Source: Clostridium sp. AF37-5 (GTDB lineage: Bacteria > Bacillota > Clostridia > Oscillospirales > Acutalibacteraceae). From it: a DNA stretch of 64,000 nt. How positions within the stretch are numbered: position 1 is the stretch's first letter; each line of letters starts with the position of its first letter. Both the position numbers and the translations under genes were made by a program. Under the pieces are notes generated by a model. That model was not told the origin of the DNA. It did not search any database and worked only from the letters and a program-made list of their open reading frames with translations. Below are positions 35,119 through 53,155 of the stretch, one piece after another. The DNA is taken from assembly GCA_963625835.1 (NCBI GenBank), contig CAVFVA010000002.1:17058-81057 (forward strand), written 5' to 3'.

Positions 35119-35217
35119 TTAGAACTCGAAGTATCCTTCCTCGGTTGATGTTGTGATAACATCAACTGAAAGGAACTGCTCAACTTCTACAACGGGCTTT
35201 GTGTAAATTTCTTTCAT
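35119..35217 (-). CDS. 32-aa peptide with YxxP leader-like motif (RiPP-precursor-like)
   Basis: Not in ORF track; ACGGAGGT RBS; MKEIYTKPVVEVEQFLSVDVITTSTEEGYFEF; lies inside the operon before its terminator. Confidence 0.85.
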   Translation of the reverse strand: MKEIYTKPVVEVEQFLSVDVITTSTEEGYFEF

Positions 35218-35289
35218 TGTGAAAGACCTCCGTTTAGTTTATTGACACAGCAGAGCCTGAACCCTGCCGAATTCGTTGCTTAAACTAAA

Positions 35290-37845
35290 TTAAGCGAGTG
35301 TAGCAGTTTGTGGTTCTGCGTAAATTACCTGCGATACACCGTCTTTTTCAATGATGATGTATGCACGAGCCGAAACAGAAGATGCAGATGTCTTAAGAGT
35401 AAGAGCGAACTGACCGTCTGCTGCGGTGTTGCTGTTCTTATAGATGTAAGCACCGTTGCCTACATTTTCAAGAACGAGAGTTGAAGTGTCTGCAACATCC
35501 TTGCCGAATACGAAACCGGATTCAAGAAGATTATAATCTTCCGGAACGGAACGTGTTGCAAGGAATCTTGCCTTGTTTGAAGCAAGCTTTTCAGCTGCCA
35601 CAGCGGTTACAACGGGCTGAGCCGTTACAGCACCTTCAACAAATTCAACGTTAACATTAGCTGTTACGAAGAATGTGTATTCGCTGCCGAACGCTGCATC
35701 ATTGCCGTTGATCTTCCATGTGCCTTCGTTAGCTGCCGAAACAGTTACCTTAGCATCATGAGAAACAGTTGCCGTTGTGCCCATATCCTTGCCGTCTACA
35801 GTGATTGTGCAGCCGGTAGGAGCGGTTACGGTGTAAGCTGCTGCTTCATCCTTTTCATAGGAAGCAACTACGGTTGCGGCACCGGAAAGAGCCTTAACCG
35901 CATCAAGATCCATGCTCCAACCCTTGAATGTGAAGCCCTTATATTCATAAGGAGCGGGCATTGCGCTGAGAGCTGCAACATCATCGTTGCTGAGCTTAGC
36001 GATAACATTGTTGAACTGGTCAACAAATGTTACATTAAATGCCTTAGCCTCGTTTGCTGCGAATACAGGTGTGTAAGTAAGATCTGCATAAGCAGCGGTT
36101 GTGTAAGTGGGCTGAGTGGAAACGAGCTTGCCGTTTACCTGCCAGCCAACGAATTTAGCGTTTGCTGCCGGAGTTGCTGTGAGAGTATATTCCTTCTCAT
36201 AAGCAACCTTTTGAGCTGCGCCTGTTGTAGCTTCGCCGTTAAGAGTTGTGGTGCCCTTATCGGATGCATTAACAGTGATCATAACGCCTGTTGCGGGAAT
36301 TACCTGGCCCTTAACGACTACATCGTTGCATGCAGAGCATACGGAATCACCGGTGTAACCGTTTTCGCCGCGGGTAGCTTCCTTAGCGTTAACGCCTGTT
36401 TTGATATCGCCGACATGGTTGGTTTTATCAACAGGAGTTTCTGTTTGTGCAACAATTACGGTGTTGCAAGCTGCGCAGTGAGAACCTGCGGTTAAGCCTG
36501 TTGATTTGCAGGTTGCAGCTACTGCTGCATCTGCTACAACATCTTCGTGATTTGCGGAATCAAGAGCCTTATATTCGGTCTTGGTTTGACCACATTCACA
36601 TTTGTAAGTAATTGTGCCCTGTGTTTTACATGTTGAAGCTGTTTCAGCTGTCTTCACCCAAGTATGCTCGGATGTTACAGGAACTGTGTCGCCGCCTGTG
36701 GTGTAGCCGCAAACGGAGCACTTCTCAACAGCGGTTTTACCCGTTGATGTGTGAGTGGGAGCAACGGCTTTTTCTGTTACTTCCATTGTAGCCTTACAAG
36801 AAACCGTGGTTACGGTTTCCTTTTCGGTGTAGGTTGTTGTGCCTTCAACGAAATCGGGCCAAGAATAAGTTTTGGTGGTGTGGTTGCCTGCTTTGTCCGA
36901 TGTGGGACCTACAGTAGCCGTGTTGGTGGGAGCTGTGGGAGTTTCACCTGCAGCAGCCTTTACGGTTGTTGATGTGCCGTCATTGAAGGTGTAAGTATAA
37001 GTTACATCTTCGGAAGCGGGTTCAAGACCCCATTCGGGCATAATGAACTGAGTTCTGGGTGAGGGATTTTGTTCTTTATCATCAAGTGAATTATAAACAA
37101 CAAGGTCCTTATCGTCGGAACCGGGAGTTGTGTTAATAAATGTATCACCTGAATTTTGATAAAGTGGAAGTGCCTCTGTTAAATCAACTTCATCAGTTTG
37201 CATTTGAAGACCAAATACAGCAAGCATTTGACCCTTAAAAACTGAATCCTCATTATCTGAATCTTGTTGATATGAATTCGGCCAAGGCTCGTGCGGTGTT
37301 GCGTTAAGAATAACAGCAAGAGTCTGCACGCTGGCACGAAGGTTGATACCGCTTACGTCGGAAGCATCAATATCGGTGTTTGTGTCAGCCCATGTTGCAA
37401 GGACACAAGACTTACCGGCTGCTTCGCCTGTTGTAAGTGTGTCCTTTCTGCCTGAATAGCTGGCAGGAACAACATCATTATCAGCAAGTCCTTTTGCATA
37501 TTTCCAAATGAGAGAAAGGCAGTCTGCCGTATCAACATTTTCAACTGTAACAACAAGTGCAAATGTGCCGTTTCCCGACTTAAGGTCAGACTTCTTCAAA
37601 TTTTTCAAATCATATGTGGGGACAGCACCTGTTTCCAATTTATCATAATAGTAATTGGACATATATCCCCATGCATCGGTACCGTCATAATCCACAACAT
37701 AGGTGTGAAGAACAACGTCCTCATCATAGCTGTATTTACCGTCTGTATTATTTTTATTCGGGAGTGCGAATGAGGTGAGAGGGAAGCTGAAAGCCACCAT
37801 CAATACAGAGAGCAACACAGCCAAAGCTTTTTTCAAGCTTTTCAT
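35290..37845 (-). CDS. 851-aa secreted protein: cohesin-like N-domain, four His/Cys (CxxC-type) repeats, B-repeat-like domains, C-terminal beta domain
   Basis: Signal peptide ...PLTSFA; CSVC, CEC, CAAC, CSAC repeats; FVGW/FKGW motifs; ends ARAYIIIEKDGVSQVIYAEPQTATLA; no LPxTG/TM/SLH seen. Confidence 0.75.
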   Translation of the reverse strand: MKSLKKALAVLLSVLMVAFSFPLTSFALPNKNNTDGKYSYDEDVVLHTYVVDYDGTDAWGYMSNYYYDKLETGAVPTYDLKNLKKSDLKSGNGTFALVVTVENVDTADCLSLIWKYAKGLADNDVVPASYSGRKDTLTTGEAAGKSCVLATWADTNTDIDASDVSGINLRASVQTLAVILNATPHEPWPNSYQQDSDNEDSVFKGQMLAVFGLQMQTDEVDLTEALPLYQNSGDTFINTTPGSDDKDLVVYNSLDDKEQNPSPRTQFIMPEWGLEPASEDVTYTYTFNDGTSTTVKAAAGETPTAPTNTATVGPTSDKAGNHTTKTYSWPDFVEGTTTYTEKETVTTVSCKATMEVTEKAVAPTHTSTGKTAVEKCSVCGYTTGGDTVPVTSEHTWVKTAETASTCKTQGTITYKCECGQTKTEYKALDSANHEDVVADAAVAATCKSTGLTAGSHCAACNTVIVAQTETPVDKTNHVGDIKTGVNAKEATRGENGYTGDSVCSACNDVVVKGQVIPATGVMITVNASDKGTTTLNGEATTGAAQKVAYEKEYTLTATPAANAKFVGWQVNGKLVSTQPTYTTAAYADLTYTPVFAANEAKAFNVTFVDQFNNVIAKLSNDDVAALSAMPAPYEYKGFTFKGWSMDLDAVKALSGAATVVASYEKDEAAAYTVTAPTGCTITVDGKDMGTTATVSHDAKVTVSAANEGTWKINGNDAAFGSEYTFFVTANVNVEFVEGAVTAQPVVTAVAAEKLASNKARFLATRSVPEDYNLLESGFVFGKDVADTSTLVLENVGNGAYIYKNSNTAADGQFALTLKTSASSVSARAYIIIEKDGVSQVIYAEPQTATLA

Positions 37846-37859
37846 CGAATTACCTCCGC

Positions 37860-39002
37860 TTAACTAACAACAATATCTGTGTAAGTAAGGTTTTCTGAAC
37901 TATATCCTGCAAAAGCAAGATAAATTTGCTTATCTTTAGTATTTATGGTTCCGTTTCTGTCAAGGTCAACGCCTACATCATAACCGTCATCCTCAGACCT
38001 TAAACCGGAGAGACTTATATATGACGATTTATCCTTAGCGTTGATAGTGTTGTTGCCATCCCAATTGCAGGCAACAATGCCAACCGTTGTTGAAGATTCA
38101 ACATCGGAATCCGCAACTTCAATTGTGAAGGTGCGTGTGAAGCCGTATTTATAAGAAACGGTTGCGGTGTAAGAGCCGGTGGGAACATCATTAAAAATGA
38201 ACTTTCCGGATTCATCCGTTTCAGCCGAAACCGTTTCGGCGCCGATTTCAACAGAAACCTGCGCACCCGTTACGGGATAGGAGCCATATTCGTCGCTCGG
38301 CGCGGTTAATGCGCCGATATAAGCGGAAACCGAATAGCCCGTGGCTAATTCGGGCGAGAGATCGCATTGCATTGCATAAACCTCGCCGTTAAAATCCGCT
38401 GCCGTGCTTAACGCATAGCATTTATAAAAATACGATGTGCCGGAAACGGTTACATCGCCGTAATCAACCTCAATAAAGGTTCGATTAGGATTTTCATCCA
38501 CCTGCAAAGCAGTGCTCATATCTATTGCGGTATCCGCAGCATCAGACACGGTAACATTAATCTTCAGCAATTCAGCTTCGTTTGCGGCGAGAGCCGAATT
38601 GGAATCATAATTTGCCGAGTTATAAGCAAAAACAAAGGAACCGTTTGAAAATTCACTTTGCACGGCATTTATATTCAAGCCCGCAGCTGCCAAGGGCAAA
38701 GAACTGCCCGAAAAAGCCAGGAGCGACGAATCATAAGAAGCGGTGAATTGCATTTGAGAGATTGATGCAAGATCATCAACCCGCAAAACCATTTCATATG
38801 TGCCGGGTGTTAATGCATTGCCATCTGCCGCATTGCCGGAGGAATCCGTGAATTGAGCGGAAATTACCGGCGATTGCGTGCCGATTGAGGAAGTTGAACC
38901 CTCTGCGGCAGCTCCGTAAATATTAATAGATATGATTAAAGTGCAGGTAAGAACGGATGCCAATGCAACCGATAATTTCCTTTTGAATTTTTCGAGTTGC
39001 AT
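37860..39002 (-). CDS. 380-aa secreted cohesin-like + Ig-like (CarboxypepD_reg-like) + dockerin protein
   Basis: Signal peptide; LRVDDLASISQMQFTASYDSSLL...ELLKINVTV; TDESGKFIFNDVPTGSYT; two Ca-binding loops NWDGNNTINAKD and DLDRNGTINTKD. Confidence 0.75.
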   Translation of the reverse strand: MQLEKFKRKLSVALASVLTCTLIISINIYGAAAEGSTSSIGTQSPVISAQFTDSSGNAADGNALTPGTYEMVLRVDDLASISQMQFTASYDSSLLAFSGSSLPLAAAGLNINAVQSEFSNGSFVFAYNSANYDSNSALAANEAELLKINVTVSDAADTAIDMSTALQVDENPNRTFIEVDYGDVTVSGTSYFYKCYALSTAADFNGEVYAMQCDLSPELATGYSVSAYIGALTAPSDEYGSYPVTGAQVSVEIGAETVSAETDESGKFIFNDVPTGSYTATVSYKYGFTRTFTIEVADSDVESSTTVGIVACNWDGNNTINAKDKSSYISLSGLRSEDDGYDVGVDLDRNGTINTKDKQIYLAFAGYSSENLTYTDIVVS

Positions 39003-39054
39003 ATTAAGCTACTCCGTTTAAATATATTTTCGCCTAACGCGAATAGCAACCGAA

Positions 39055-39118: not shown

Positions 39119-42100
39119 TTATTTAACAGTTACATCCGTATAGCTTATATCGCTATCTTTGTAACCCGCAAATGCAAGATAAATAGCTTTATCCTTGGTA
39201 TTGATTGTTCCGTTTCTGTCAAGGTCAACGCCTACATCATAGCCGTCTGAACCCTCTCTTGTGCCGGAAGCTGCCAAGTATGACGATTTATCCTTTGCAT
39301 TAACAACAGCATTGCCATCCCAGTTGCAGGCAACGATACCTACCATGGTTGAAGAAGAAACATCGGCACCGTTTACAACAACGGTGAAGGTTCTTGTGAA
39401 GCCATATTTATAGGTTACGGTTGCGGTGTAAGTGCCATCCGGAACATCCGTAAGAGTGAACTTACCGGAATCATCGGTGGTTGCTGAAACAGTTGTGCCG
39501 TTTACATCAATGGAAACAACTGCGCCTGTTACTGCATACTTACCTTCTGTGTCCGTAGGAGCGGACATTGCGCCGATATAAGCAGACACGCTGTGGCCGG
39601 ATACCGGTTCGGGAGCATCGGATGCTTCCGTAAGTCCGTTTTCTGCAATCATCAGCTTTTGCCTAATTGTGTAAAGGTTTGAAATGCTGAGCGTGTAGCC
39701 TTCCTTATCACTGGTATCAAACGGAGCCATATCGGTGTGCTTATAAAGACCTGCCTGGAATGTTACTGCATCAACAGCATCATAAAGAGCATCAATAAAT
39801 GCAGACCAACTTTCATCCGAATAGGTTACGCCATCCGGGTTGGAGGATGCTGTGTAAGTGGTGCTGCCAACGGTGTAAGTTTTAGCATCGGGATCTGCAT
39901 CAACAGTTGAAACATCAAGTGAAGCGGAGCCTGTGCTGTTCTTACCGGCAACTGCGCAGCGGATTTCGGTTAAGAGCTGATTCGGAACATAGCCGCGCTC
40001 AAGAACCTTTGCCATATAATCGTTGAAGTTACGAAGAGCTTCACGAAGTTCAAAGGTGGAAGCCGTGGAAGTTACAACAGCATTGTCGTAATTAACAACG
40101 TCATCGAAATCTCTGAAGCTGCGATTTACTTTATTAGCAGTGTTATATGCTTTAAGAGCATCGTCTCTCTCGGAATCAAGAGAGCTGAAAGCAAGTGTTG
40201 TTTCACCGTCTTCGGTTGTGTAGTAATAATCTCTGTAAAGGTCAACGTTAATAAGAGCTTCGGCATTGCGACCTTCGCCTGCCATTTGCTCATACTTAAT
40301 AACATCGAAGTTTACATTATTAAGGCCGGATCTGAGAACATAAACATTCTCGAACACATTCTTAGCATAAGAAACATCAAGATTTTCATCAAGAATTTCC
40401 TTAGCATAAGTTACCTTATCGTTTACTGCTGCAACGGAGCCTCTGGAAGCAGTGCCGGGAACGATTTGATTTTGTGTATTTGCATACATTACAACCCAAT
40501 CATCCGATGTGGCAACAGCCTTGTTATCGGCATCGTTATGAGTGTATTCAACAGCGGAGTAAACAAGATTGCCTTGGCTGTCTGTAACCTGAGTGTCGGT
40601 GGTTGCAAGATAGGGAGCTTCAAAATAAGGAGCTGTGCCCGAGCCTGCATCCTGCCATTCGGTTTCATAAGCTGCGGCATTAACGAAATGCCATTCGCCG
40701 TCTACGCTTACAACCTTAACGCCTGTTGAATTAACAGTGTAAACGTCAAGATTAGTTGCTGCACCGTTTACCGTTGCGGTAATGGTTTCACTTGTTTTGG
40801 TAACATCAGAATCAGTGATTTTGGTGTTGCCGTAAATCGGGTTAGCGAATACCTCGGAGCCATTTTCAGTGTAATGGGTGAGGTAATATACGCCGTCCTT
40901 AACAACTGCGGAAGCTTTAAGGCTTGCAAAGTTTGAACTGCTCATAGTATCTGCCGTTGCAGGGGCATATGCTATTTCGCCGACAACATTGGTTGTGTTT
41001 GAAGTTTTTGCAAAGTTAGCTTTTTGAGAACCGAGTTTTGCTGCGTTATCGGCAGTAATAACGGTTGCAGTTGTGGAAAGAGCCTGCATAACTGCATCTC
41101 TATAATAGTTATAGTAAGCTGCGTCTTTAGCATCGGCAGCAGTGTAGTTATTCAGGAATTCCTCGCCTGCGGCATAAAGGCTTTCGGAAGTTGAAATATC
41201 CGAAAGGTCGCTGACGATAAGATTTGTTGCAAGGTCGTAGCTTGCGGATGTTACAACGCTGAGTTTAACATCGGAGCGACCCTGCTTAACGCTGTGCTCC
41301 TTATCCCATTCAACAAAGTCAAGCTTTGTGCTGGAAGAAGACATTGCGCCGGGAGTGAGGGAGAATACAAGACCCTGAGAGCCTGTGGAAGCTGTTGCGC
41401 TTGCCTTAACGCCCTTATTGATGGCTGCACTGTAATCTCCTGTGCCGCTTGTTGAAATATAAACGCAGTTATAAGAACCGTCGTTATTTCTGTCGGCAAT
41501 AATGCTTGAGGGAACATAGCCGTTTACGCCTGTGGTGGTGATATTATCGAGCGTGCAAACAACATGCTGCCTGTATTCGGGAACTGTTGTGTCGGTATTA
41601 ACAAGATTTACAACATCGTCTCTGCTGAGAATCTTATCTTCCGCAGTTACCCAAGCACCCTTAGGATTACCGTTTTCATCATAAACGATATTCTTTACGG
41701 TTGTGCCGTCCACTGTTTCGGTGGTGTACTCATACTGATAATAATCATACCAAGAGGTGTTAACGAGGTTACCCGTTGTGGGATCTGCTGCAGCTGCAAC
41801 ATACTTTTGACCGTCTACAGTGATGTATGCTTCAAATCTGATGTTTGAAGATGATGAACCTGTGCGGTTAAGGTATACTGTTGAGTTGGAAACCGAAGCA
41901 GGATCGTCTGTTGAAACAGCGATATTGTTGGGAACAACAAGATAAGTTGCCTGCCTTGTATTACCGGCAATCACGCCCGTCGACGAAGTAGTTGTACCTG
42001 TCTGGTTCATGGCAGTGACAGGGTCAGCAAAGCCGGTAGTGGAACTGCTGCTGTAGGTTTGCGTATACAGATCCTGTTGAGCGGATACATAATAATAAAC

Positions 42101-45100
42101 TGTTCTGGTTAAATCGCTTGCATATTCAGACGAATAAGCGGTGCCATCCTTATTAACAATTTGATATGTAACCGTGAATGCAACAGCTGTTGCATTTGAA
42201 GAGCCAAGATCGCTTGCGGAAAGAGAACCGCTTACGCCGATAGAGCCTCTTGCCTCGGGATCGAGGGTTGCGGCAGTATCGCCTGTAAATGACCATGTGC
42301 CCTTATCGGCTTTAACGCCCTTAACTTTAATCCAAGAGCGGCCGAGTTCATCGGTGGAGCCGTCCGTTTTAATAGTGAAACGGTTAAGACCTTTACCGAG
42401 GTTTTCCAGATTGATAGTGTTTGTGAGTGTGTTACCTGCCGTGTAGCCCTTAACAACATCACTTGCAAGCTTAGCATCAAGGTTGCTAACCTTGTAGTTT
42501 TGAAGTTGGGGAAGGAATCCGTCAAGCAAGCTTGCAACGGACTGAACAACGAACATCGCACCTTTCCAAACAGTATCGTGATAACCGGAAAATACGCCGG
42601 CGAACTGGATAACATTTACAATTGCACTTGAGATAACGCCGAAATTGGAAGCATCTGAAGAAGTGCCTGCAATAACGCTGCTCTGAACAAGATTGTGGAA
42701 CGGCTTATTAACATTATCGCCGGAAACATCCGGAATAACATTCTTGCCATACAGCGGCTGATTGCTGCTGCGGGCATTAAGAAGACCGTTCAACAGTTCT
42801 TTAAGAACATCATAAACCGTAAGGTCTACGCCCTTTGTTGAAATAGAGGGAGCGTTAAGAATTGTTGCAAATCTGTAAATAAAGTTTGTTACGCCGCCGA
42901 GTTCCTCACCGTCTACGGTGTGAGTGCTTGCAATATTAAGTGCGCCTGTTACCAGATCGTCCATAATAAGAGCATGCGAATCAAATGCGCCGCGCTTTGA
43001 AGCGCTGCCGAATTGAAGCTCGCCGAGAACGGGAAGAAGTTTATTTGCGATGATATCAAGGTTCTTCCACAAAGTGTTGTCCAGAGTAATCAGGCTGTTA
43101 CCCTCTGAATCTGCACAACCGAGAAGAGGACCTACACCCTTATCGTTTGCGTAATAAGAAATTACGGAATTAAGGATGCTGAAGATATCTGTGCCCTCGG
43201 CTACCTGCTCAGCATAAGTTTGAACAGATGTTACATTATAGATGCTCCAGAACTTGCCGGTTTTATCTGTAATCGGCACGTATTGCATCATAACATAGCC
43301 AACGGCATCGCGACACAGTGCATAAATTGTTTCCATAGATATATCATAATATCCGTCGCTGCCCACAGTTAAGAACTGCGAGTAATCGTTTTGAGGAAGC
43401 ACATATGCAAGGTGTTCCTGAAGAATAACTGCTGCAACGCCTTCTGCGTCATCACATTTATCCCACCTGTCATAGTGGATGGATTTAAGATCCTGAATGT
43501 TATTCTGAAGGCAAGCAATAAGAAGCGGAATCATTGCGCTTTCAAGATTTGACTCGGAAAGCACAGCGGAATCGCCGCTTGTGTGATAGAACGCCGAAAG
43601 GATGTTCTTATCGGTTGCATCGCCAACATACTGAATAACTTTCAGTGCGTTTGCAACAAGAGTTTTGCCGATTGTTTTGGCATCGTTGGTATTGATTGTT
43701 GTAAGTGAAGAAGCGCCTGCATAATCGGGCAGGAAGTCCTTAACTGCTGCAACAAGGAAATCATTAAAGCCGGCAAGAATATTGCTGTAGTTGCCGTACT
43801 GATTTGCCATGAATGCATCAAGATTAGGAGTGCCGGTGCACTTAAAGTTTGTGTTAAGAGGACCGGTTTCCGCCTTAAAGTAATAAACCATAAGCGGGCT
43901 TCTGCGAAGCTCGTTAAAGAGCTTTGTGGAATCAATATCTCTCCAATTATACTGAGCGTCTTTTACAACGCTTCTGTCATAAGTGAGAGCTGCCTTAACA
44001 TCGTCAAGGTTAAGATTATAATCCTTAGCCCAAGCCTGAACATTGGTTTCGGAATAGTTACTTGCAGGATTTGAGTAATCCCAAGTTTTACCCTCGCCGA
44101 GGAACCATTCCATATATTCCCAGTCATAATCCTTAATAGCCGAGTTAAGAAGCTTTAAGGTTGGCTGAAGAACTGTTTTCCAGGCTATTGCCAACGCATT
44201 GTAAGAAAATTCATACAGCGTTGTGCTTGGTGTTAATGTAAGATTTGCATCGTCAACACCGTCGCCGTTGCTGTCATACTGGAAGAGGTAAACATTACCG
44301 TCCGGAGTGTAGCAAAGGCCGGAATCTTTTTGACCGGCAGCATAGCGTGATTGAGAGCTTGTGCCGTCTGCATAAGTTACATTAACATTGATCTTACGCA
44401 GAAGTTCATTCTGCAAAGATCTGAAAAGCATAGTATCAAGGTCGTAGCCGGTTTCATTATTATACATCTTAGTAGCTTCGTCGCTTGTGTACCAAGTGGT
44501 ATTTTCGGTGAGAAGCTTAACTATAATGTTATATACAAGGTTCTTTTCATAGCCGTCGCTCATACCAAGACCCACAGCACTGTTAAGAATGCTGTAAAGA
44601 TTAAGGTTAAGGGGCATGCTGAAAGAGCCTCTGAGAAGCTGGTTAACAACCGCTTTACCGCCGTCCCAGTTTGAAACATTGTTAGAAACAGCGTTCAAAA
44701 GGGCTTTGACAATGCTTTTCGCGGAATTGTTGGCTCTGTAGTCCTTGCCGCATGCCGGCCAATCGCCGGTTACTGTTGTGTAAGACATGCCGGTAAGCGG
44801 GCTGAGGGTGATGTTTTTAAGATCGCCGCCCAAGCCGTTGGCCTGATCAACGGTGGATTTCAGCTGATCTACTATATCAAGAAGACCGCTGACACTGTCC
44901 AGCGTGCCGTTTACGTTTACATTGATTACAACGTAACTGCCGCTGATTGAAACAGGCAATTTAAGATCGTACAGGATGTCGTCCACATAATCAAGAAGAG
45001 CCGCGCAGGTTTGCTCATCAGAGAGCTCAACCCAAGCCAAAGCATTTGACTTAAGCGCGTCATCATGATATTCAGGATCGGCGGAGGCCGCATACGCGGA

Positions 45101-45181
45101 GAAAGCACCCGTGAATGCGGTGAGTGCCATCAGAACCGCAAGAAACAAAGCAAGCAATTTCTTGCCAAATTTCGTTTTCAC
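39119..45181 (-). CDS. ~2020-aa secreted protein with helical N-half, beta-rich middle and C-terminal Ig-like + dockerin module
   Basis: GTG 45181 after ACGGAGGT RBS; signal peptide ...AFSAYA; FIVAR-like YSDESWSAFIDAL; NWDGNAVVNAKD and DLDRNGTINTKD loops. Confidence 0.8.
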   Translation of the reverse strand: MKTKFGKKLLALFLAVLMALTAFTGAFSAYAASADPEYHDDALKSNALAWVELSDEQTCAALLDYVDDILYDLKLPVSISGSYVVINVNVNGTLDSVSGLLDIVDQLKSTVDQANGLGGDLKNITLSPLTGMSYTTVTGDWPACGKDYRANNSAKSIVKALLNAVSNNVSNWDGGKAVVNQLLRGSFSMPLNLNLYSILNSAVGLGMSDGYEKNLVYNIIVKLLTENTTWYTSDEATKMYNNETGYDLDTMLFRSLQNELLRKINVNVTYADGTSSQSRYAAGQKDSGLCYTPDGNVYLFQYDSNGDGVDDANLTLTPSTTLYEFSYNALAIAWKTVLQPTLKLLNSAIKDYDWEYMEWFLGEGKTWDYSNPASNYSETNVQAWAKDYNLNLDDVKAALTYDRSVVKDAQYNWRDIDSTKLFNELRRSPLMVYYFKAETGPLNTNFKCTGTPNLDAFMANQYGNYSNILAGFNDFLVAAVKDFLPDYAGASSLTTINTNDAKTIGKTLVANALKVIQYVGDATDKNILSAFYHTSGDSAVLSESNLESAMIPLLIACLQNNIQDLKSIHYDRWDKCDDAEGVAAVILQEHLAYVLPQNDYSQFLTVGSDGYYDISMETIYALCRDAVGYVMMQYVPITDKTGKFWSIYNVTSVQTYAEQVAEGTDIFSILNSVISYYANDKGVGPLLGCADSEGNSLITLDNTLWKNLDIIANKLLPVLGELQFGSASKRGAFDSHALIMDDLVTGALNIASTHTVDGEELGGVTNFIYRFATILNAPSISTKGVDLTVYDVLKELLNGLLNARSSNQPLYGKNVIPDVSGDNVNKPFHNLVQSSVIAGTSSDASNFGVISSAIVNVIQFAGVFSGYHDTVWKGAMFVVQSVASLLDGFLPQLQNYKVSNLDAKLASDVVKGYTAGNTLTNTINLENLGKGLNRFTIKTDGSTDELGRSWIKVKGVKADKGTWSFTGDTAATLDPEARGSIGVSGSLSASDLGSSNATAVAFTVTYQIVNKDGTAYSSEYASDLTRTVYYYVSAQQDLYTQTYSSSSTTGFADPVTAMNQTGTTTSSTGVIAGNTRQATYLVVPNNIAVSTDDPASVSNSTVYLNRTGSSSSNIRFEAYITVDGQKYVAAAADPTTGNLVNTSWYDYYQYEYTTETVDGTTVKNIVYDENGNPKGAWVTAEDKILSRDDVVNLVNTDTTVPEYRQHVVCTLDNITTTGVNGYVPSSIIADRNNDGSYNCVYISTSGTGDYSAAINKGVKASATASTGSQGLVFSLTPGAMSSSSTKLDFVEWDKEHSVKQGRSDVKLSVVTSASYDLATNLIVSDLSDISTSESLYAAGEEFLNNYTAADAKDAAYYNYYRDAVMQALSTTATVITADNAAKLGSQKANFAKTSNTTNVVGEIAYAPATADTMSSSNFASLKASAVVKDGVYYLTHYTENGSEVFANPIYGNTKITDSDVTKTSETITATVNGAATNLDVYTVNSTGVKVVSVDGEWHFVNAAAYETEWQDAGSGTAPYFEAPYLATTDTQVTDSQGNLVYSAVEYTHNDADNKAVATSDDWVVMYANTQNQIVPGTASRGSVAAVNDKVTYAKEILDENLDVSYAKNVFENVYVLRSGLNNVNFDVIKYEQMAGEGRNAEALINVDLYRDYYYTTEDGETTLAFSSLDSERDDALKAYNTANKVNRSFRDFDDVVNYDNAVVTSTASTFELREALRNFNDYMAKVLERGYVPNQLLTEIRCAVAGKNSTGSASLDVSTVDADPDAKTYTVGSTTYTASSNPDGVTYSDESWSAFIDALYDAVDAVTFQAGLYKHTDMAPFDTSDKEGYTLSISNLYTIRQKLMIAENGLTEASDAPEPVSGHSVSAYIGAMSAPTDTEGKYAVTGAVVSIDVNGTTVSATTDDSGKFTLTDVPDGTYTATVTYKYGFTRTFTVVVNGADVSSSTMVGIVACNWDGNAVVNAKDKSSYLAASGTREGSDGYDVGVDLDRNGTINTKDKAIYLAFAGYKDSDISYTDVTVK

Positions 45182-45348
45182 AATTTTTACCTCCGTGAAA
45201 ATTTTAAACACAATGAAGTTTTATTCATAGAATGTTCACACTCCGACTCTCTGACCTACGGGCAATCCGAACAGAGCGGAAGTGCGCATTGAAACGCACG
45301 GATGTGAGCAAATGTTTACAGAAACGAATACTACTCCATTCATTAAAT

Positions 45349-45377
45349 ATTAAAACACAAGCAAATTAAAAAGTCAA
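45349..45377 (-). promoter_or_regulatory. sigma-A promoter of the dockerin/cohesin operon
   Basis: TTGACT-N17-TTTAAT with extended TG on minus strand. Confidence 0.6.
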
Positions 45378-45767
45378 TATGAACAAAGTTAAAACCGAGA
45401 TTTTGGCACTTTTAACGAAATTACAAGTGCGCTTTTGTGCAATTTGAGCATTTAAAAATTTACAATTTGTTCATACTTTTCTTACAAAAAGTTTACCTTG
45501 TAACAGTTTCGTAACCCATTACAGAGGGTAGTTTTTGTAAATGCAGACCCCTTTACACAACAACATCTTGTATATTTTTCGGCAATAATTTTCAAAATTC
45601 AACAATTTTTCAAAGGCGGTTTGCTTGCACGAAATTGCGCTGTTTTGAATGCATTTTTTATGCAGGCATAACGAAAGACCGGCACAAATTTTACTTATTT
45701 TCGGAAATGATTTACATATAATTGCCGAATTTTGTTCACAGTTTGTTAAAAAATTCAAAAAAAGGTG

Positions 45768-45796
45768 TTGACTTCCGCTTTTATATTTGGTATAAA
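45768..45796 (+). promoter_or_regulatory. sigma-A promoter of the 2404-aa gene
   Basis: TTGACT-N17-TATAAA with extended TG. Confidence 0.75.
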
Positions 45797-45940
45797 TATA
45801 TTGTATTGTTCGTGCGCGTGGGCATTTTGCGCCCTACGGCGCATTTTGTTAACATTTCGTTCACAAAGTACGCTGTAAGCGAATACCCGTGCGCTTAACT
45901 GAGAGCATGTTTATGTTCCCAAAATCATAAAAAAGGAGAG

Positions 45941-48900
45941 ATGATTATGAAAACGAGCAAACGATTACTCAGCCTGCTTTTGGCTGTGGTAATGGTGATA
46001 ACAACCTGCTCCGTCGGCATGAGCGCATTCGCAGCCGATGAAAGCGACGATGTTTTCACCTATGTTACCGACGAGGGTAAAGCGGTAGATATCACATACG
46101 AATCGCTTAACAACCTTGTCAACACCTACGCTCCCGAAATCATTAAGCTTATCAACCAAAACGGTAAGCTCACCGAACTCGGCGTTGACGTAGATGCGGT
46201 TTGCGCTTCAGAAAAGCCGATTTACGAACTTTTGGCGCAACTGTCACCAACGCTCATCCAACTTATGGGCGGCAGCAACGGCGATTCCGACGCTGTTATC
46301 AAATCCGTGCTTATTGACGCGGGTGCGATTAGCTCGGATATGGCAGACTTGGATAAGGAAAAAGCAATGCGCTTTGTTTATGCGCAATATGCTTATCTTA
46401 CCGACGACGACGCTGCAATGAGCATTTGGAGTCTTTATAAATTCTGCATGGACAATGAGAAATCGGATAACAAAGACCTCAAAAAATATTGCACAGACAC
46501 AAAAGATGTTCTTAAACCGCTGATTTTGGCATTCAGCAACGCTTACGATGTTGCAAAAGCTTCAGTAAGTGCAGATTTTGCAACGGTTGAGGAATATGTA
46601 AGAACAAAAGTTATCGGCGAAGGTGCTTTCCAGGAAAACACCTTTTCAAGCATGGTTTCAACTTCGTTCTTTACACCCTATCTTTTGAATGCACCTTCAT
46701 TCGGCAAATCCGAAGTCAACGAAGCAAGCAATGTTATTTCAATGGGCGGCGGTGCAGAACTTACCGCTATTCCGGCTTCTCTTGCAGAGGCGAAGAAAAT
46801 CGTTGCAAGCGGCAGCGCATTCAAGGGCAAAAATCTTACGGATATCAACGCTTCGAGTGACAGCACTGTTGCAACATTTATCAATAAGGTTGTTGAACTT
46901 TGCGAAGCTGTAAACGCTCCCATCAGCGCAAATCCGTCTCTTGCCGAGGCTGCTTATTGGTATTATAACCAACCGATCAGAAGCACTAACGCAGTTCTTA
47001 CCAAGGTTCTCACCGATATCAGCGGCGAATCGGTTTTCGTTGATGATTTAGGTTTGATATTTGAGATTAAGCCCGGAGAATATTTCTACGATGCCTGCAG
47101 AGTAAACGACATGACATACGATTTCTTTGCAGAACTTACCGGAGCTCCGAGCAAAACAACCGAAGATTCTTTCTGGTATGCACTTTATGACACCAGCTTT
47201 TCATGGTGCGAACTCGTTTCCGCAAATATTTTCGCAAATCAATCCTCGGATCCCGCTGCCAGCAGCTGGATGTATCAAAAAGGCTTCACTGCAAGCGATT
47301 TTGCTGCAATCAAAACACGAATCGGAGACTTACTCAAAGCTAAGAGTGCAACAAATGTTTCCGAAATCACCGAAGATGAATTCATTAATGGCACAGGCTC
47401 CGTTCCTGCTGTTAAGGCAGACGGCAGCCTTTCAAGCTTTGTTAAATTCTATCTTACAAACGAATTGTTCTCAAGCATTCCGCTTGCGGCAATCTACGCT
47501 TGGGACGGCACCGAAGACGGCATCACCGATGCAATGAATGTTGCCGGCTCACATGCACAGTATATTTTTGAGGGCTATCTTACCTTTGCAACATCAAAAG
47601 AAGTTGAGCCCACAATCACCGCAACATACGATTGGAATAAGGTTAAGCCCGATAACGACCTTGCAATTGAAATTGTTAACGCCAACATTAACGCTTACAT
47701 TAACTATGTAAGAGAAGGTATTCCCGGTGTTAGCATTGACATTTACACACTCGCAAGCGGCATTATATCAAACCTTACCGATTCACTCACTCTGAATACA
47801 CTGCTTGAAAAAGTTACCGACATTTACAAAAACCTTGCAAATGACCCGGTTAAAACAATTTTTGAGTTACTTCCCGTTATAGTTGTTGTTCTTGACGATG
47901 TACTCGTTCCCCTGCTCTTTAACCAACAGGGCGATATGTACTTTGAACAAATCAACGGTATTCTTTCAAACCTTCTTAACGAAAAGAATCTTTCTCAGGC
48001 ATCGGGCAGCCCGACGGGTATCGGTCAAATCGGCTGGAACCTTAACGAAGTGCTTCCCACTTTGCTTCACTGGCTCAACGGCGACAACAGCTACACCTAT
48101 ACATATTATAATGTAGACACAACAAACGAAACAAAATATGTTTACGGCACGCCCACAACAGGCGCAAACGGCACTAAATACGATAACGACGGCAACAAGC
48201 TTGACCATGTTCCGGTTATCCTCAATATTTATGCAGTTGATAAAAAGCTTGCAGACGCTGCCGCTTCAGACCTCGGCAGCAGCGATGCGGTTTCAGAAAT
48301 TATTTCAACCGTTATGAACCTGCTCGTTTCCGATGTTGACAGCTATGTTGCAAACCACGGTTCCGACATCGGCAAATACATCATCGACCAGGGCGACGAA
48401 AAGCAAATCGTTTTCCGCGGAATAAACAATGTTTTTGTTGCTCTTCCGAGCATCATCAGTGCCGTAGGCGAAAGCGCGCTTGCAGCATACAATGTTCCCA
48501 GCGACTGGACTTTCGGCGAATTTGCCACGGATTCAGACGGCTGCAAATACAATGTTTCCTCAAAAGAATTTAAAGACCTTTGCAAAAACAACGAATCGGC
48601 AGCCAAAGTGCTTGAAACATTCGTTGATATGTTTGTAAACAACTGGTTCAACGCACTCACCGATTTCTTAAACGATGTTGTTTCCACGGATAACACCATC
48701 ACAAAGGATATTCCGGTTGTGGCTTCACTGCTTCAGGGTGTTGACCTCTTTGGCGAAACAAGTGTTCTTACCGATGTTCTTAACGGCTTCTTCCTTATGA
48801 ACAGAGAACACGCAGATTCCTTCACATTCGAGCCTCGCGAAAACGGCTATGTGGGCATCAGCACACTTTCCGCTTACTTCCTGCTTTGCAATGTTGAACC

Positions 48901-51900
48901 GATCGTAACCTTTATTATCAGCGTTATCAACGCAAATTCATCGGAAGACACCACAACCGTTTCCATCACATCCGGCTCGGATATCGTTACGGCGGCAGTT
49001 ACCGATGACATCACAAATTCAATAAACATTGATGAAATCACAAAAGAATATTACAATGTGGTTTCCGACAGCGAAAATACAAAAGCTGCGGAAGACTTAT
49101 TAGATGCAGTTGACGAACTTCTTTCAACTCTCCTTTCAAATACATATGTTGACGGCTTCACCGTTGACCAGGCAGACGGAATCCTTTCCGGCGCGGTAAC
49201 ATTCCTTGTTAACCACTTCGGCGTTGACACTGCAAACGATATCGTAAATCTTGTTATGCAGTATGCAAAAACAATCAATGCCGATAATGTTGCAGAGGAC
49301 GACGGCTCCGTAAACGACAAAAAGGTTTATTGCAAAGAAAACCTTTCAAACCTTGTAACTCAAACCTATGTTCTTGTTGAAACGATTATCGACCAAAAGC
49401 TTAATGTTAAGGGCGATACAAACAAGCTTGTAAACGGCGCAATCAAGGGAATCATTTCTCCGAGCGCAATTGCAGTTCGTTCCGATTCAATCAACAAGAA
49501 GATTATGAAAGAGCAAAGCTGGACCGAACTTTCGGCAACAGGCTATGCAAAGAACCTCGGCTACAGCAATCTCAGCGCAGGCGATAAGGACACTTTCTAT
49601 AAAGACCTTATTGATTCGCTCGGCGTTATTCCTGCTGTTTTCGGCACACTTCTTTGCGCAACAGGCTACTACAACAATGTAATCAGCCATGTTCTTTCCG
49701 ATATTTGCGGCAATCTTGATGTTTCCTACACCAAATCACTTCCTGCAAACGCAGACGGCAAGGATGCAACCTTTGCAATCATTCAAGTTGCCTCCAACAT
49801 TATAAACAAGGTTCTTGAAGCTCCTGCTTCATCACTTTTCGGCATTATCAAGGGCGTTGCCTCCAACTTGACCGACGCTGAATTCGGCACAACGGTTAAG
49901 GCGGTTGTTTCTCCCATTACAAACGAAATCAACGGCGCAGCCGACATCGTTTCACTTCTTTCACAATCGCTCAGCAAAACAATTGCAAGCTATGCAAATC
50001 TTGTTGACAACACTGTAAACAATGTTATTCTTAAAGACAGCAACTATTTCGTAAACACAGTCAATGTTATTCTTACCCTTCTCGGTAAAGACTTGATTGA
50101 TATGGATTTGAACAGCATTTTCACTGCCGTTTCTCAGGCAACAAATGCTCAGCTTCTGCTTCTTGTTTACACAGTTGCCGTAAGCATTATCACAAACAGC
50201 TCAATCCTTTCCTCCTTGCTCAACGGCAAGTATCCGGGCATTGTTGATATGGTTTCCAAGCTTTCTCCGAGCAAGCTTCTTGCAATAATCAGAGAAGTTA
50301 TCACATCAACTCAAAACCCGAAGGAAATTGCTTGGACATTCACCGATTATGCCGCTCAGGAAAGCAACACATTCTCTTATCCCAAGGGAATCACCGCTTC
50401 CGACGCAAACTCGGCTGTTACAAGCCTTGACGATCTTGTTAAGAACATCTTCCCGCTTCTTAAGAGCTTCGGTGTTCTTGATGCAGACGGTCTTAACGAC
50501 ATCATTAACGATAAGCTCTTCACAAACGAGCTTGTTACCTCGATTGCAACCGGCGTTTACGGCGCAATCGAAAAGAGTGTAGACCTTATCTCCCCTGCCG
50601 ACCTTGCCGCTTATCTTACAGATTCAAGCTACGGCACAACATATTCATCGGCAGCAAGCACACTTAAGAATTGCTCTTCATGGAGCGATGTTAAATCGGT
50701 TAACTGGGGCTTCACAAACGGCTCTTCTTCCGCTCAGCAAGGCTTCATCAATGCACTTGCAGCTCTTTGCAGACCTGTAAACGACATTCTTGCAGCATTC
50801 CTTGCAGGCGGCGATGTAAACCTCGGCGAAGTTCTTCAAACCGTTCTCAGCAATCTTGAAATAAACACAACCACAACTTCCGGCGATGTTCAGATTAAGA
50901 TTTCTCTCAGCAACAGCATCCTTGTTGTTGAACTTCTTAACAAAGCAGCGTCAGACGCAAAAACAAACACAATTAAGGTTGATCTTAACGAAATCATCGC
51001 TCAGCTTAACGCTCTCAGCATTAAGGGCGGCAACGGCTACGAAAGCGCAATCATTCCGCTTCTTGAAGCTCTTATGTGCGATAATGTTAAATCACCCTCA
51101 CAGTATCTCAGCGATTACAAGAAAGCTAAGGATAACCTCCTTATCGACATTCTTAATCCCATCTTCGGCTTTGTAAACAGGGTTGCCGATAAGCCGTTTG
51201 ACACAATCACGGCTGTTCTTCCGAACCTTGCTTACTTTATCGACAACAACGGTCTCGGCAAAGTTATTGACAACCTGCTTTCACCCGTAACAAGCATCCT
51301 TAAAGTGCTTGAAAACAACGGCGTGAGCGTCGACAAGATTATCGAAGCAGTTGCAGGTAAGTCACTTGCAGATATTATCGGCAACGCCATCGGCGCAGAC
51401 CTCGGCGGTCTTGATTTAAGAATAGGCAATCTTCAGAATTGCAACATTCAGGATTACCTTGCAGACATTATCAATGCCGTTCTTAAGAAGAACAACATTA
51501 ACATCAAGATCGGCAATATCGACTTCGGCTTCCTTGCAAGCCTCGGCGATCTTAACACAGTTTACGGCGCAGCAGGCTCAATCAAGCAAATCACCGCAAA
51601 TCAGGGTCAGGTTCTTGTTACCTTGCTTCGCTACATCGAAAGCGTTCTTATCAACAACGCTTCCGCAATTAACAAGCTGCTCGGCAACATCGACGCAATC
51701 AAGAATAATGCAACAATCAAGGGCATCCTTGACAGCGTATTCGCAAACATTGCAACAGCAAACAGAGATGATATTGTTCTTGCAATATTCTATCTCCTTC
51801 TCGGTCAGCCGACAGACACATTCTTTGATTATTCAAACTTCCAGCTTAAGGATTACTCCTTCTCTTATCCCTCAACGGTTGATGTTGACTTCTTAGAGGT

Positions 51901-53155
51901 TATCGGTCCCATGATCGACGGTCTTGTAGGCGGTCTTGTTCCGGGAGGACTTTCAAGCCTTGTAACTGCCAATGTTTATAAAGACAGCATTATCAGCTCT
52001 ATGGCAACAGGCATTTACGGCGCAGTTGAAAAGGTTAAGGTTGGCAACATGAGCCTTACCTCGCTTCTTGCTCAAACAGGCATTGATTTCACAACCGACA
52101 ATGTTGCTTCGCTTCTTACGGATAAGAGCTACGGTCAAACCTTTGAATCCGCAGCAAAAACAATCAAGAGCGCAGGCTCTTGGGCAAATGTTAAAGCCGA
52201 CAAGCTTTCTTGGGGCGTTACAGACAGAGACAGCTTCCTCCACGCGCTTTGCGCAGTGCTTCGCCCGGTTTACGGAGTGCTTGATGTGCTTCTTAACGAC
52301 GGCTCACTCGGTCTCTTCAATCTTATCTATCTACCCGGTTCGGACGGATATACTTCCACAATAGTTCCGATCATGGAGGCATTCGGTCTTTACAACATCA
52401 AGACTCAGTATCAATACAGAGAAGATATGAGCAAAGAATATGACGCTATCCTGCTTGATATTCTTAATCCTCTTCTTGACAAGGTTGAGGATATCCTCAA
52501 TGCTCCTATCCAAACTCTTATGAGCATGCTTCCGAACCTTTCACTCTTCTTTGCAAACGACGGATTGCTTCAGGTTATCGAAAACCTTACCACTCCGATC
52601 AGAGCACTTATTGACGCACTTAAGCCCATAGCAAATATCAATGATATTCTTGTGGCAGCAGGTCTCAATATTCAGAAGACGCTTTCCGGTCTCGGTCTTG
52701 TTGACAGCAACTATAAGTTCGATATCTACGATCTTACAGCTTCGCTTAAGCCGCTCATCGGCTCCGACAATATCGTTTCCCTTCTCAACAAGGTTATCGG
52801 CATGATCAAGATTTCCGGCACACCGCTCGGAATCGAGCTTATGCCTATCGATTGGTTCCAGCTTGCTTCTCACGGCGAATACATCACCGACGAAGCTTCG
52901 CAGGCTTCCACCACAGGCAAGAGAGTTTATGTTCAGGCTGATTCCAATGAAGTGCTTATAGCTGTTCTTCGTTACCTGATTAACACAGTTAACTACAAGG
53001 ATAACTACAACACCATCAGCAACCTCATCGGCAGCCTCATCGGCGGCGCAAGCAGCTCCGTATCTCAGGTAGTTGATCAGGTTCTCGGAATGCTTACCGG
53101 CGACACGGATCAGGTTATCTCCGATCTTTGCGGACTTCTTCAAACTCTTGCTTAA
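45941..53155 (+). CDS. ~2400-aa secreted protein with ~500-aa internal amphipathic-helix repeats, function unknown
   Basis: AAAGGAG RBS; signal peptide ...GMSAFA; repeated FSYP...ATG(V/I)YGA.EK...WG...F..AL....RP...G..GY...I.P..EA...LPNL..F. Confidence 0.85.
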   Translation: MIMKTSKRLLSLLLAVVMVITTCSVGMSAFAADESDDVFTYVTDEGKAVDITYESLNNLVNTYAPEIIKLINQNGKLTELGVDVDAVCASEKPIYELLAQLSPTLIQLMGGSNGDSDAVIKSVLIDAGAISSDMADLDKEKAMRFVYAQYAYLTDDDAAMSIWSLYKFCMDNEKSDNKDLKKYCTDTKDVLKPLILAFSNAYDVAKASVSADFATVEEYVRTKVIGEGAFQENTFSSMVSTSFFTPYLLNAPSFGKSEVNEASNVISMGGGAELTAIPASLAEAKKIVASGSAFKGKNLTDINASSDSTVATFINKVVELCEAVNAPISANPSLAEAAYWYYNQPIRSTNAVLTKVLTDISGESVFVDDLGLIFEIKPGEYFYDACRVNDMTYDFFAELTGAPSKTTEDSFWYALYDTSFSWCELVSANIFANQSSDPAASSWMYQKGFTASDFAAIKTRIGDLLKAKSATNVSEITEDEFINGTGSVPAVKADGSLSSFVKFYLTNELFSSIPLAAIYAWDGTEDGITDAMNVAGSHAQYIFEGYLTFATSKEVEPTITATYDWNKVKPDNDLAIEIVNANINAYINYVREGIPGVSIDIYTLASGIISNLTDSLTLNTLLEKVTDIYKNLANDPVKTIFELLPVIVVVLDDVLVPLLFNQQGDMYFEQINGILSNLLNEKNLSQASGSPTGIGQIGWNLNEVLPTLLHWLNGDNSYTYTYYNVDTTNETKYVYGTPTTGANGTKYDNDGNKLDHVPVILNIYAVDKKLADAAASDLGSSDAVSEIISTVMNLLVSDVDSYVANHGSDIGKYIIDQGDEKQIVFRGINNVFVALPSIISAVGESALAAYNVPSDWTFGEFATDSDGCKYNVSSKEFKDLCKNNESAAKVLETFVDMFVNNWFNALTDFLNDVVSTDNTITKDIPVVASLLQGVDLFGETSVLTDVLNGFFLMNREHADSFTFEPRENGYVGISTLSAYFLLCNVEPIVTFIISVINANSSEDTTTVSITSGSDIVTAAVTDDITNSINIDEITKEYYNVVSDSENTKAAEDLLDAVDELLSTLLSNTYVDGFTVDQADGILSGAVTFLVNHFGVDTANDIVNLVMQYAKTINADNVAEDDGSVNDKKVYCKENLSNLVTQTYVLVETIIDQKLNVKGDTNKLVNGAIKGIISPSAIAVRSDSINKKIMKEQSWTELSATGYAKNLGYSNLSAGDKDTFYKDLIDSLGVIPAVFGTLLCATGYYNNVISHVLSDICGNLDVSYTKSLPANADGKDATFAIIQVASNIINKVLEAPASSLFGIIKGVASNLTDAEFGTTVKAVVSPITNEINGAADIVSLLSQSLSKTIASYANLVDNTVNNVILKDSNYFVNTVNVILTLLGKDLIDMDLNSIFTAVSQATNAQLLLLVYTVAVSIITNSSILSSLLNGKYPGIVDMVSKLSPSKLLAIIREVITSTQNPKEIAWTFTDYAAQESNTFSYPKGITASDANSAVTSLDDLVKNIFPLLKSFGVLDADGLNDIINDKLFTNELVTSIATGVYGAIEKSVDLISPADLAAYLTDSSYGTTYSSAASTLKNCSSWSDVKSVNWGFTNGSSSAQQGFINALAALCRPVNDILAAFLAGGDVNLGEVLQTVLSNLEINTTTTSGDVQIKISLSNSILVVELLNKAASDAKTNTIKVDLNEIIAQLNALSIKGGNGYESAIIPLLEALMCDNVKSPSQYLSDYKKAKDNLLIDILNPIFGFVNRVADKPFDTITAVLPNLAYFIDNNGLGKVIDNLLSPVTSILKVLENNGVSVDKIIEAVAGKSLADIIGNAIGADLGGLDLRIGNLQNCNIQDYLADIINAVLKKNNINIKIGNIDFGFLASLGDLNTVYGAAGSIKQITANQGQVLVTLLRYIESVLINNASAINKLLGNIDAIKNNATIKGILDSVFANIATANRDDIVLAIFYLLLGQPTDTFFDYSNFQLKDYSFSYPSTVDVDFLEVIGPMIDGLVGGLVPGGLSSLVTANVYKDSIISSMATGIYGAVEKVKVGNMSLTSLLAQTGIDFTTDNVASLLTDKSYGQTFESAAKTIKSAGSWANVKADKLSWGVTDRDSFLHALCAVLRPVYGVLDVLLNDGSLGLFNLIYLPGSDGYTSTIVPIMEAFGLYNIKTQYQYREDMSKEYDAILLDILNPLLDKVEDILNAPIQTLMSMLPNLSLFFANDGLLQVIENLTTPIRALIDALKPIANINDILVAAGLNIQKTLSGLGLVDSNYKFDIYDLTASLKPLIGSDNIVSLLNKVIGMIKISGTPLGIELMPIDWFQLASHGEYITDEASQASTTGKRVYVQADSNEVLIAVLRYLINTVNYKDNYNTISNLIGSLIGGASSSVSQVVDQVLGMLTGDTDQVISDLCGLLQTLA

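Follow-up and report, generated by a model that had tools for sequence, protein, structure and literature searches.

Dockerins are built from two tandem segments of ~22 residues, each an EF-hand-like calcium loop (Asp or Asn at positions 1, 3, 5, 9 and 12) followed by a helix, and cohesins fold as nine-stranded jelly-roll beta-sandwiches. Pairs of the two outside cellulosomes have been catalogued for years and, to our knowledge, almost none of them has a known job. The closest described systems are those of type II scaffoldin attachment, in which a dyad of X-module and dockerin (XDoc) pairs with a cohesin: the CipA XDoc with the SdbA and ScaC cohesins in C. thermocellum (2b59, 5g5d, 3kcp) and the ScaA XDoc with ScaB in A. 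cellulolyticus (4u3s, 4wi0). Here we analyse a locus in a stretch of 64,000 nucleotides (the window) from contig CAVFVA010000002.1 of Clostridium sp. AF37-5. Its region 35119-53155 holds a minus-strand operon for secreted proteins of 2020 (P0003), 380 (P0002) and 851 amino acids (aa) (P0001) and for a 32-aa peptide, closed by a terminator, together with a divergent gene for a secreted protein of 2404 aa (P0004). We think it rather probable that the locus encodes a secreted assembly held by cohesin-dockerin contacts, with no detectable catalytic domain, in which the giant P0003 is tied to P0001 directly or via P0002.

As in the scaffoldins, a large, secreted, non-catalytic protein terminates in an X-module and, directly behind it, a duplicated EF-hand dockerin, and the cohesins that might receive it occur singly, each on another protein. 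Unlike in the scaffoldins, the proposed cargo is 2020 aa long and without an assigned fold, a small protein that bears a cohesin carries another, near-identical XDoc, and no enzyme-bearing type I dockerins, multi-cohesin scaffoldin, carbohydrate-binding module (CBM), S-layer homology (SLH) domain or LPxTG signal was found. The locus also resembles the known non-cellulosomal cases in having cohesin and dockerin modules in an organism without a cellulosome. In fold, the N-terminal domain of P0001 matches the C. perfringens cohesins 2jh2, 2vo8 and 2w1n and the Archaeoglobus cohesin 2xdh (Z 6.5-7.5); unlike the C. perfringens examples, which according to the entry titles sit on glycoside hydrolases (GHs) and toxins, the modules here belong to a closed, genus-wide operon with matched dockerins and giants without a recognisable enzyme. 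A report on Cellulosilyticum lentocellum describes a pair, ClcC/ClcD, that joins cellulases and raises cellulase activity (PMC13487519); that system shows the same economy as here, a single cohesin and very few dockerins in the genome, encoded by adjacent genes, and differs in the joining of cellulases, no catalytic domain being detectable in our locus. Dockerin-type giants of Omnitrophota reach at least 30,000 aa, are membrane-anchored, carry many dockerin/thrombospondin repeats and enzyme-like domains and have a proposed role in attachment (bioRxiv 10.1101/2023.11.21.568195); they share with the present locus very large extracellular proteins with dockerin-type calcium-binding modules, and differ from its one terminal XDoc on a 2020-aa protein and its separate cohesin proteins. 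A limited literature search gave no prior description of the system. Its kind, a non-cellulosomal cohesin-dockerin pair, is already known; it stands apart within that kind by its architecture, by its giant partners and by dockerin pairs that are matched within each species.

The dockerins are the firmest part of the case. The earlier note, made from the bare sequence of the window, had described paired calcium-binding loops at the C-termini of the 2020- and 380-aa proteins, and we could locate them: NWDGNNTINAKD (residues 313-324) and DLDRNGTINTKD (residues 346-357) in P0002, and loops of the same pattern at residues 1963-1974 and 1996-2007 of P0003 (2030-aa numbering). Asp or Asn occupies the calcium-ligand positions in both loops of each dockerin, and D324 and D357 of P0002 are invariant across 52 relatives. 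In phmmer searches, the C-terminal ~160 residues of P0002 find type II XDoc chains of scaffoldins with solved structures (4u3s_B best, 3.2e-9, followed by 4wi0_B, 2b59_B, 5g5d_B, 3kcp_A and 5k39_B). Alignments to 2b59_B, 4u3s_B and 3kcp_A cover residues 220-368 and so include an Ig-like X-module directly upstream of the dockerin, in which Pfam also finds a CarboxypepD_reg-like match (residues 242-300, 32.3 bits). Family profiles extend these matches: that of 52 full-length P0002 relatives reaches 3kcp_A at 5.6e-17 in the PDB and that of 32 P0003 relatives reaches 4u3s_B at 1.4e-16; both kinds of profile also match type I dockerins (6e-7 to 9e-3). Dockerin_1 of Pfam is matched by 31 of the 52 P0002 relatives at E ≤ 0.01, and by 6 of 20 P0003 relatives above the gathering score. 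Judged from these sequence matches, the C-termini of P0002 and P0003 are real dockerins within XDoc dyads of type II.

On the cohesin side, P0002 passes the Pfam Cohesin cut-off in the searches of the protein alone and of the whole genome (E 2.8e-6, model positions 17-123 of 139), and we take its N-terminal domain, on thin support, to be a cohesin; P0002 has 308 relatives at E ≤ 1e-3. For P0001 the indication comes from a predicted fold. An AlphaFold2 (AF2) model of its N-terminal domain, built with 37 relatives, has a pLDDT of 86 and a pTM of 0.81, and Foldseek matches the model best to cohesins of type II, though the E-values are weak (2e-3 for 5g5d_A). When these matches were re-examined with VIA-align, the top 33 rows were cohesins (Z 8.7-6.6); a VIA-align comparison with 48,161 representative chains, independent of Foldseek, returned cohesins in all of its top 13 rows (Z 8.6-7.4). 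Nearly complete cohesin targets are aligned, the best being 3l8q_A (Z 8.6, root-mean-square deviation 3.4, 150 residues aligned) and 4uyp_A (Z 8.5, 129 of 144 aligned), and the domain carries ~80 extra residues, as insertions, relative to the cohesin fold. The model thus suggests a cohesin-like jelly roll with ~80 inserted residues, short of a proven cohesin. Of the N-domain checks that the earlier note proposed, the Pfam search found a cohesin in P0002 and none in P0001, and the fold comparison for P0001 leans towards cohesins at a middling Z. Its claim that the two N-domains share a motif stood in part: the motif is present, and a profile-profile alignment of the two families (hhalign, E 0.005) puts both copies on each other, whereas the pairwise similarity is not significant (BLASTP E 0.58). 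A complex prediction for P0001 (28-280) with P0002 (212-380), run from the two window sequences alone, gave an ipSAE of 0.00 and bears neither way.

The modules form a closed set. Across the whole genome Pfam recognises one cohesin and no dockerin, and the XDoc copies number two; all of these lie in this operon, and the cohesin-type modules number one per protein, in P0001 and P0002. In four other genomes of the genus (G003, G019, G026, G029) a third XDoc is found elsewhere in the genome, on extra giants of 1,694-2,383 aa; species therefore differ in how many cargo proteins with a dockerin they encode. The four large proteins match no GH, protease, CBM or other catalytic family at E ≤ 0.1 (Pfam, NCBIfam), and 20 P0003 relatives match no catalytic domain at E ≤ 1e-4. 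Profile and hydrophobicity searches thereby bear out the remark of the earlier note that GH, protease, LPxTG, SLH and membrane-anchor motifs are lacking, and the catalytic domain of a carbohydrate-active enzyme, named there as a finding that would speak against the proposal, was looked for in the four proteins and did not appear. With no dockerin-bearing enzyme, no multi-cohesin scaffoldin, no CBM and no scaffoldin anchored by SLH domains or a sortase signal among its predicted products, the system is, on profile evidence, non-cellulosomal.

An enzyme might nevertheless be hidden. The locus could encode a minimal complex of the cellulosome or amylosome type, in which profiles have missed a highly diverged catalytic domain in one or both giants and the cohesin-dockerin contact tethers this enzyme. 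There is room for it: the two giants together contain ~4,200 residues without a fold assignment, invariant His, Cys, Asp and Glu columns occur in the N-region of P0003 (H579, C586, D588, E590), a GH28 gene lies 3.4 kb away, and minimal cohesin-dockerin enzyme systems exist, as in Cellulosilyticum lentocellum (PMC13487519). Still, we regard such a complex as unlikely, given the empty catalytic searches in the four proteins and in the P0003 relatives, the all-alpha fold of the modelled P0004 module, which has no solved relative, and the position of the GH28 gene outside the conserved five-gene block.

Comparison between species tells more about how the modules might pair. Across 15 genomes the dockerin of the giant and that of the 380-aa protein are 56-89% identical within one genome (median 73%), while dockerins of different genomes share ~26%; in 13 of the 15 the two are mutual nearest neighbours, the giant's dockerin being closest to that of its own genome's 380-aa protein. 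The helix residues are nearly the same within a genome and completely changed from species to species. Since the two are near-copies in each genome, it is probable that one specificity is common to both and that they do not serve separate cohesins; the sequences point to a single dockerin specificity per genome, kept up by gene conversion, a common partner or the two together. The fastest-evolving modules are the dockerins (26-27% identity between genomes) and the N-terminal domain of P0001 (21%), followed by the P0002 cohesin (31%) and by the N-region of the giant and the C-terminal part of P0001 (41% each). Dockerin distances correlate with those of the P0001 N-domain at r 0.82 (partial 0.39-0.43 with a slower module partialled out) and with those of the P0002 cohesin at r 0.72-0.74 (partial 0.15), only a hint that the dockerins track the former more than the latter.

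These data also bear on a different geometry, in which P0002 polymerises head to tail, its own dockerin in its own cohesin, and the resulting chain or fibre is rooted on P0001 and capped by the giant. The dockerins of P0002 and P0003 look equivalent in specificity, P0002 combines a cohesin with a dockerin of this specificity, and each dockerin consists of two similar halves, which would fit a dual binding mode. Yet it is the P0001 N-domain that dockerin distances follow better, and the average codon adaptation of P0002 would be unexpected for the repeating subunit of a fibre; we consider a polymer improbable and rank it behind a hidden enzyme.

The locus is conserved as a unit. The fetched comparison set comprised 12 loci of the genus and two genomes from a different query, 14 other genomes in all, and in every one of the 12 loci and in the two further genomes all five genes stand in the same order with P0004 divergent, so that the co-occurrence on which the earlier note staked its proposal is indeed seen. 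Genus searches add 19 further co-locations on the same contig. A P0002 relative is present in 27 of 36 other genus genomes, usually adjoining an open reading frame (ORF) of 1,600-2,400 aa that ends in an XDoc; the C-terminal module of P0004 occurs in 65 of 80 genus genomes, and some part of P0001 is matched in 77 of 80, a count inflated by a widespread Cys-rich repeat. Outside the genus, neither the P0004 module nor the N-region of P0003 was found in any of 150 genomes (96 other genera, 30 families of the order), and for P0002 a search of 24 genomes from other families yielded three matches, all weak and confined to the XDoc. From these counts the locus appears specific to one genus of small-genome Clostridia.

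A natural rearrangement adds to the argument. Among the best 120 of 348 P0003 matches, three proteins of 2,315-2,328 aa (P0165, P0180 and P0181) end without an XDoc; their last ~500 residues are homologous to the C-terminal half of P0001 (E 1e-57 to 3e-58). In them residues 1-1828 of the giant are joined in frame to the C-terminal half of a P0001 homolog. Compared with the unfused locus L019, P0165 follows the giant up to just before the X-module and resumes inside the P0001 homolog, ~3.1 kb being absent relative to L019:15481-18561. The missing stretch comprises the XDoc, the whole gene of the 380-aa protein and, from the P0001 homolog, the signal peptide together with the cohesin-like domain. 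The junction shows a microhomology of ~6 nt and is common to proteins only 78.6% identical, so a one-off assembly error is unlikely. The deletion takes away exactly the proposed connecting parts and joins the remainder covalently, as the assembly model predicts. Least probable of the alternatives is that these are independent secreted adhesins or surface proteins, whose modules do not pair and are merely calcium-stabilised or carbohydrate-binding and whose synteny reflects co-regulation. In its favour, the P0001 N-domain has no cohesin sequence signature, surface proteins typically have repeats of the Flg_new_2 and Cys-rich kinds, and Peer et al. reportedly described in 2009 many non-cellulosomal cohesin- and dockerin-like modules without a demonstrated partner. 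Against it, dockerins alike within a genome and ~26% identical between genomes are difficult to account for unless they have a partner in common that co-evolves with them, a single operon holds the one cohesin and both XDocs of the genome, and the in-frame deletion takes out exactly the dockerin, adaptor and cohesin-like parts.

The secreted cohesin-dockerin assembly that we favour might work as follows. Both dockerins would plug, in a calcium-dependent manner, into the cohesin-like N-domain of P0001, the cohesin of P0002 or both, and P0003 would thereby be tied to the C-terminal half of P0001, either with nothing in between or by way of one or several 380-aa adaptors. That half, with its Cys-rich part, InlB-B-repeat-like region and terminal beta domain, may mediate attachment to the envelope or to a partner. 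P0004, all-alpha, divergently transcribed and with equally ribosomal-like codons, might be a co-produced structural component, and rapid, matched divergence of the dockerins and of the P0001 N-domain would keep the connection species-specific. That the assembly is a surface structure with P0001 as its base is an inference; the strict order of base, adaptor and cargo that the earlier note proposed would be one possible arrangement, and P0004 would belong to the system by its conserved divergent synteny and shared range alone.

A number of results weigh against this assembly. Neither dockerin of the window reaches Pfam Dockerin_1 (PF00404). The cohesin assignment of P0002 rests on one Pfam match at 28 bits; Cohesin is matched by 4 of its 52 relatives at E ≤ 0.01, and the family profile finds no solved cohesin in the PDB at E ≤ 0.01. 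The N-domain of P0001 has no Pfam Cohesin match at E ≤ 10, nor do 13 homologous N-domains at E ≤ 0.05; the Z of 8.6 is middling by the calibration of the tool, pilin and adhesin beta-sandwiches standing at Z 6-7.4, and hhalign gives a probability of 7% to the relation between the two N-domains. The distance correlations, drawn from related genomes and poor alignments, are only suggestive. P0004 has neither cohesin nor dockerin, and its homology to P0003 is confined to the signal-peptide region. P0002 is average in codon adaptation (percentile 54.8). The genome encodes no SLH domain and, despite its three sortases, none of the four proteins ends in an LPxTG signal or a transmembrane segment, so cell attachment is unexplained. 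Finally, L019, a locus without the fusion, shares 95% identity with P0165, which means that the deletion has either recurred or spread by recombination.

A bolder version, in which an abundantly produced, hitherto undescribed cell-surface layer or appendage consists mainly of the two giants clipped by a species-barcoded cohesin-dockerin lock, seems to us tentative and rather doubtful. Were it true, the fast-diversifying lock may prevent mis-assembly across species in dense gut communities or may evade phages or host antibodies directed at the joint, and the recurrent deletion welding cargo to base would be a natural 'lock-free' variant. The locus is in any case a compact and tractable one, in which the two dockerins and the two cohesins, the first clear and the second cryptic, have no further copies elsewhere in the genome, and its cross-species series of matched, strongly diverged pairs suits the study of how binding specificities co-evolve.

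Both giants belong to genus-restricted families, P0004 with at least 788 relatives and P0003 with 348, with no solved relative by sequence outside the XDoc of P0003. The first ~1,850 residues of P0003 have no assignment (the family profile found the XDoc alone in the PDB), and the protein has no usable match in the ESM Atlas. Its invariant H579, C586, D588 and E590 fall within residues 578-593 (2030-aa numbering), in the best-conserved part of the N-region; this cluster could form a metal or catalytic site. For P0004, the 120 relatives listed show eight names, each of them 'hypothetical protein', and Pfam assigns no domain to any of the 120; the family profile gives no match to PDB sequences at E ≤ 1, and the ESM Atlas returns 'hypothetical protein' clusters alone. 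P0158 is an abundant protein cluster of 13,430 members. Residues 1521-1791 and 2007-2228 of P0004 are an internal duplication (28% identity, E 4e-34). An AF2 model of the last 420 residues (1985-2404) is helical at a pLDDT of 74, with no Foldseek match at E ≤ 1e-3 and a best VIA-align Z of 5.3 over 66 residues. The all-alpha module is repeated many times in much longer ORFs of some genus members, for example G103:C6 (a 6454-aa frame), G030:C4 (7974 aa) and G061:C4 (8730 aa), which makes it a repeat unit of even larger proteins. The idea that P0003 and P0004 are paralogs was dropped: BLASTP aligned the signal peptides alone, and hhalign the first ~100 columns alone.

Codon usage was compared by the codon adaptation index (CAI) against 20 ribosomal-protein ORFs, with percentiles among 954 ORFs of at least 250 aa. 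P0001 (96.6), P0003 (94.8) and P0004 (96.0) lie in the top 3-5%, so the impression of the earlier note that the giants favour codons of highly expressed genes is supported except for TAC, which is the minority Tyr codon (41%). Genus restriction, ribosomal-like codons, the lack of a solved relative by sequence apart from the XDoc and, for the one module modelled, of a fold relative make the giants candidate new structural proteins of abundant gut Clostridia.

The remainder of P0001 is a mosaic. Its family counts 99 proteins of 640-1094 aa, none with a Pfam domain in the N-terminal part and two with PF18998. The Cys-rich repeats show conserved Cys and His columns in the family alignment and recur in many other large ORFs of the genus. 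The Flg_new_2 match that follows them stays below the cut-off (E 0.0014; 21.6 bits in the genome search), and the C-terminal domain has no family match in Pfam or NCBIfam. In two loci one or two extra secreted homologs of the C-terminal part of P0001 come after the peptide gene (L019:20489-23883, L021:20686-22728).

The 32-aa peptide reads MKEIYTKP..VDVITTS followed by an acidic tail. It has homologs in the same position in all 12 fetched genus loci and in L019-L021; those of L007-L021 are 32-40 aa long and follow the pattern MKE[IL]Y[TS]KP..VEEF..VDV[IV]TTS, with a variable acidic tail. A strong ribosome-binding site (RBS) precedes the gene in every locus examined, and no signal peptide is present. 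By motif scan the peptide is single-copy in the genome, with no paralog; it matches nothing in Pfam or NCBIfam, and a literature text search for 'DVITTS' found no paper. A regulator, a chaperone or a processed peptide are candidate roles.

The layout given in the earlier note, an operon of 2020-, 380-, 851- and 32-aa genes with terminator and a divergent 2404-aa gene, was recovered in full, with ORFs, RBS and hairpin in place (Table 1). The signal peptides it had assigned to all four large proteins are matched by N-terminal hydrophobic signal-like segments; in three of the four these are the sole strongly hydrophobic 19-mers, and P0004 has besides a few internal ones, which contain charged residues.

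Table 1. Coordinates in the window of the genes, modules and signals of the locus
Feature	Position	Strand	Basis
Intrinsic terminator closing the operon	35028..35051	-	10-pair stem, 7 GC, then T run
32-aa peptide gene, last gene of the operon	35119..35217	-	GGAGG RBS
P0001, 851-aa secreted protein, proposed receiving end	35290..37845	-	ORF
C-terminal domain of P0001, ~100 aa	35293..35595	-	Strongly conserved alignment columns
InlB-B-repeat-like (Flg_new_2) region of P0001 (residues ~523-750)	35596..36279	-	Pfam, sub-threshold
Cys-rich repeats of P0001 (residues ~350-520, ~four CxnCxxC units)	36286..36798	-	Sequence
Cohesin-like N-domain of P0001 (residues 42-273)	37027..37722	-	AF2 model and fold comparison
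P0002, 380-aa secreted cohesin-X-dockerin protein	37860..39002	-	ORF
X-module (residues ~220-305) and dockerin (~309-372) of P0002	37887..38345	-	phmmer to solved XDoc chains
Cohesin module of P0002 (residues ~70-171)	38490..38795	-	Pfam PF00963, 28.0 bits, cut-off 24.1
P0003, 2020-aa secreted giant with C-terminal XDoc	39119..45181	-	ORF and RBS reading
X-module and dockerin of P0003	39122..39604	-	68% identity to P0002 XDoc
Divergent intergenic region, 759 bp, presumed site of both promoters	45182..45940	.	Sequence read
P0004, 2404-aa secreted giant without cohesin or dockerin	45941..53155	+	ORF
All-alpha module of P0004, present in two copies (residues 1521-1791 and 2007-2228)	50501..52624	+	Self-match

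Within the operon the genes are separated by 116, 14 and 72 nt. Counted from its first GTG, the P0003 ORF (39119-45211, minus strand) has 2030 aa; the GTG at 45181, which gives 2020 aa, sits 8 nt after a GGAGG. We take the latter as the most likely start because of this GGAGG and because the closest homolog, P0125, is also 2020 aa long. A TTGACT-17-TATAAA-like site was spotted by eye near 45770-45800 in the divergent intergenic region; a promoter call from a consensus scan was dropped, as 36 sites were found against 34.7 expected in shuffles, that is, without enrichment. Just past the operon terminator lies a 238-aa ORF (34050-34766, minus strand) with hydrophobic segments and its own promoter-like site; it has no family match in Pfam or NCBIfam beyond weak membrane-protein noise and, being located after the terminator, was excluded from the locus. 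The neighbouring genes are housekeeping ones (shikimate pathway, GH28, an oxidoreductase, MFS, an M20 peptidase), and the host genome is 1.85 Mb in size and 98% complete.

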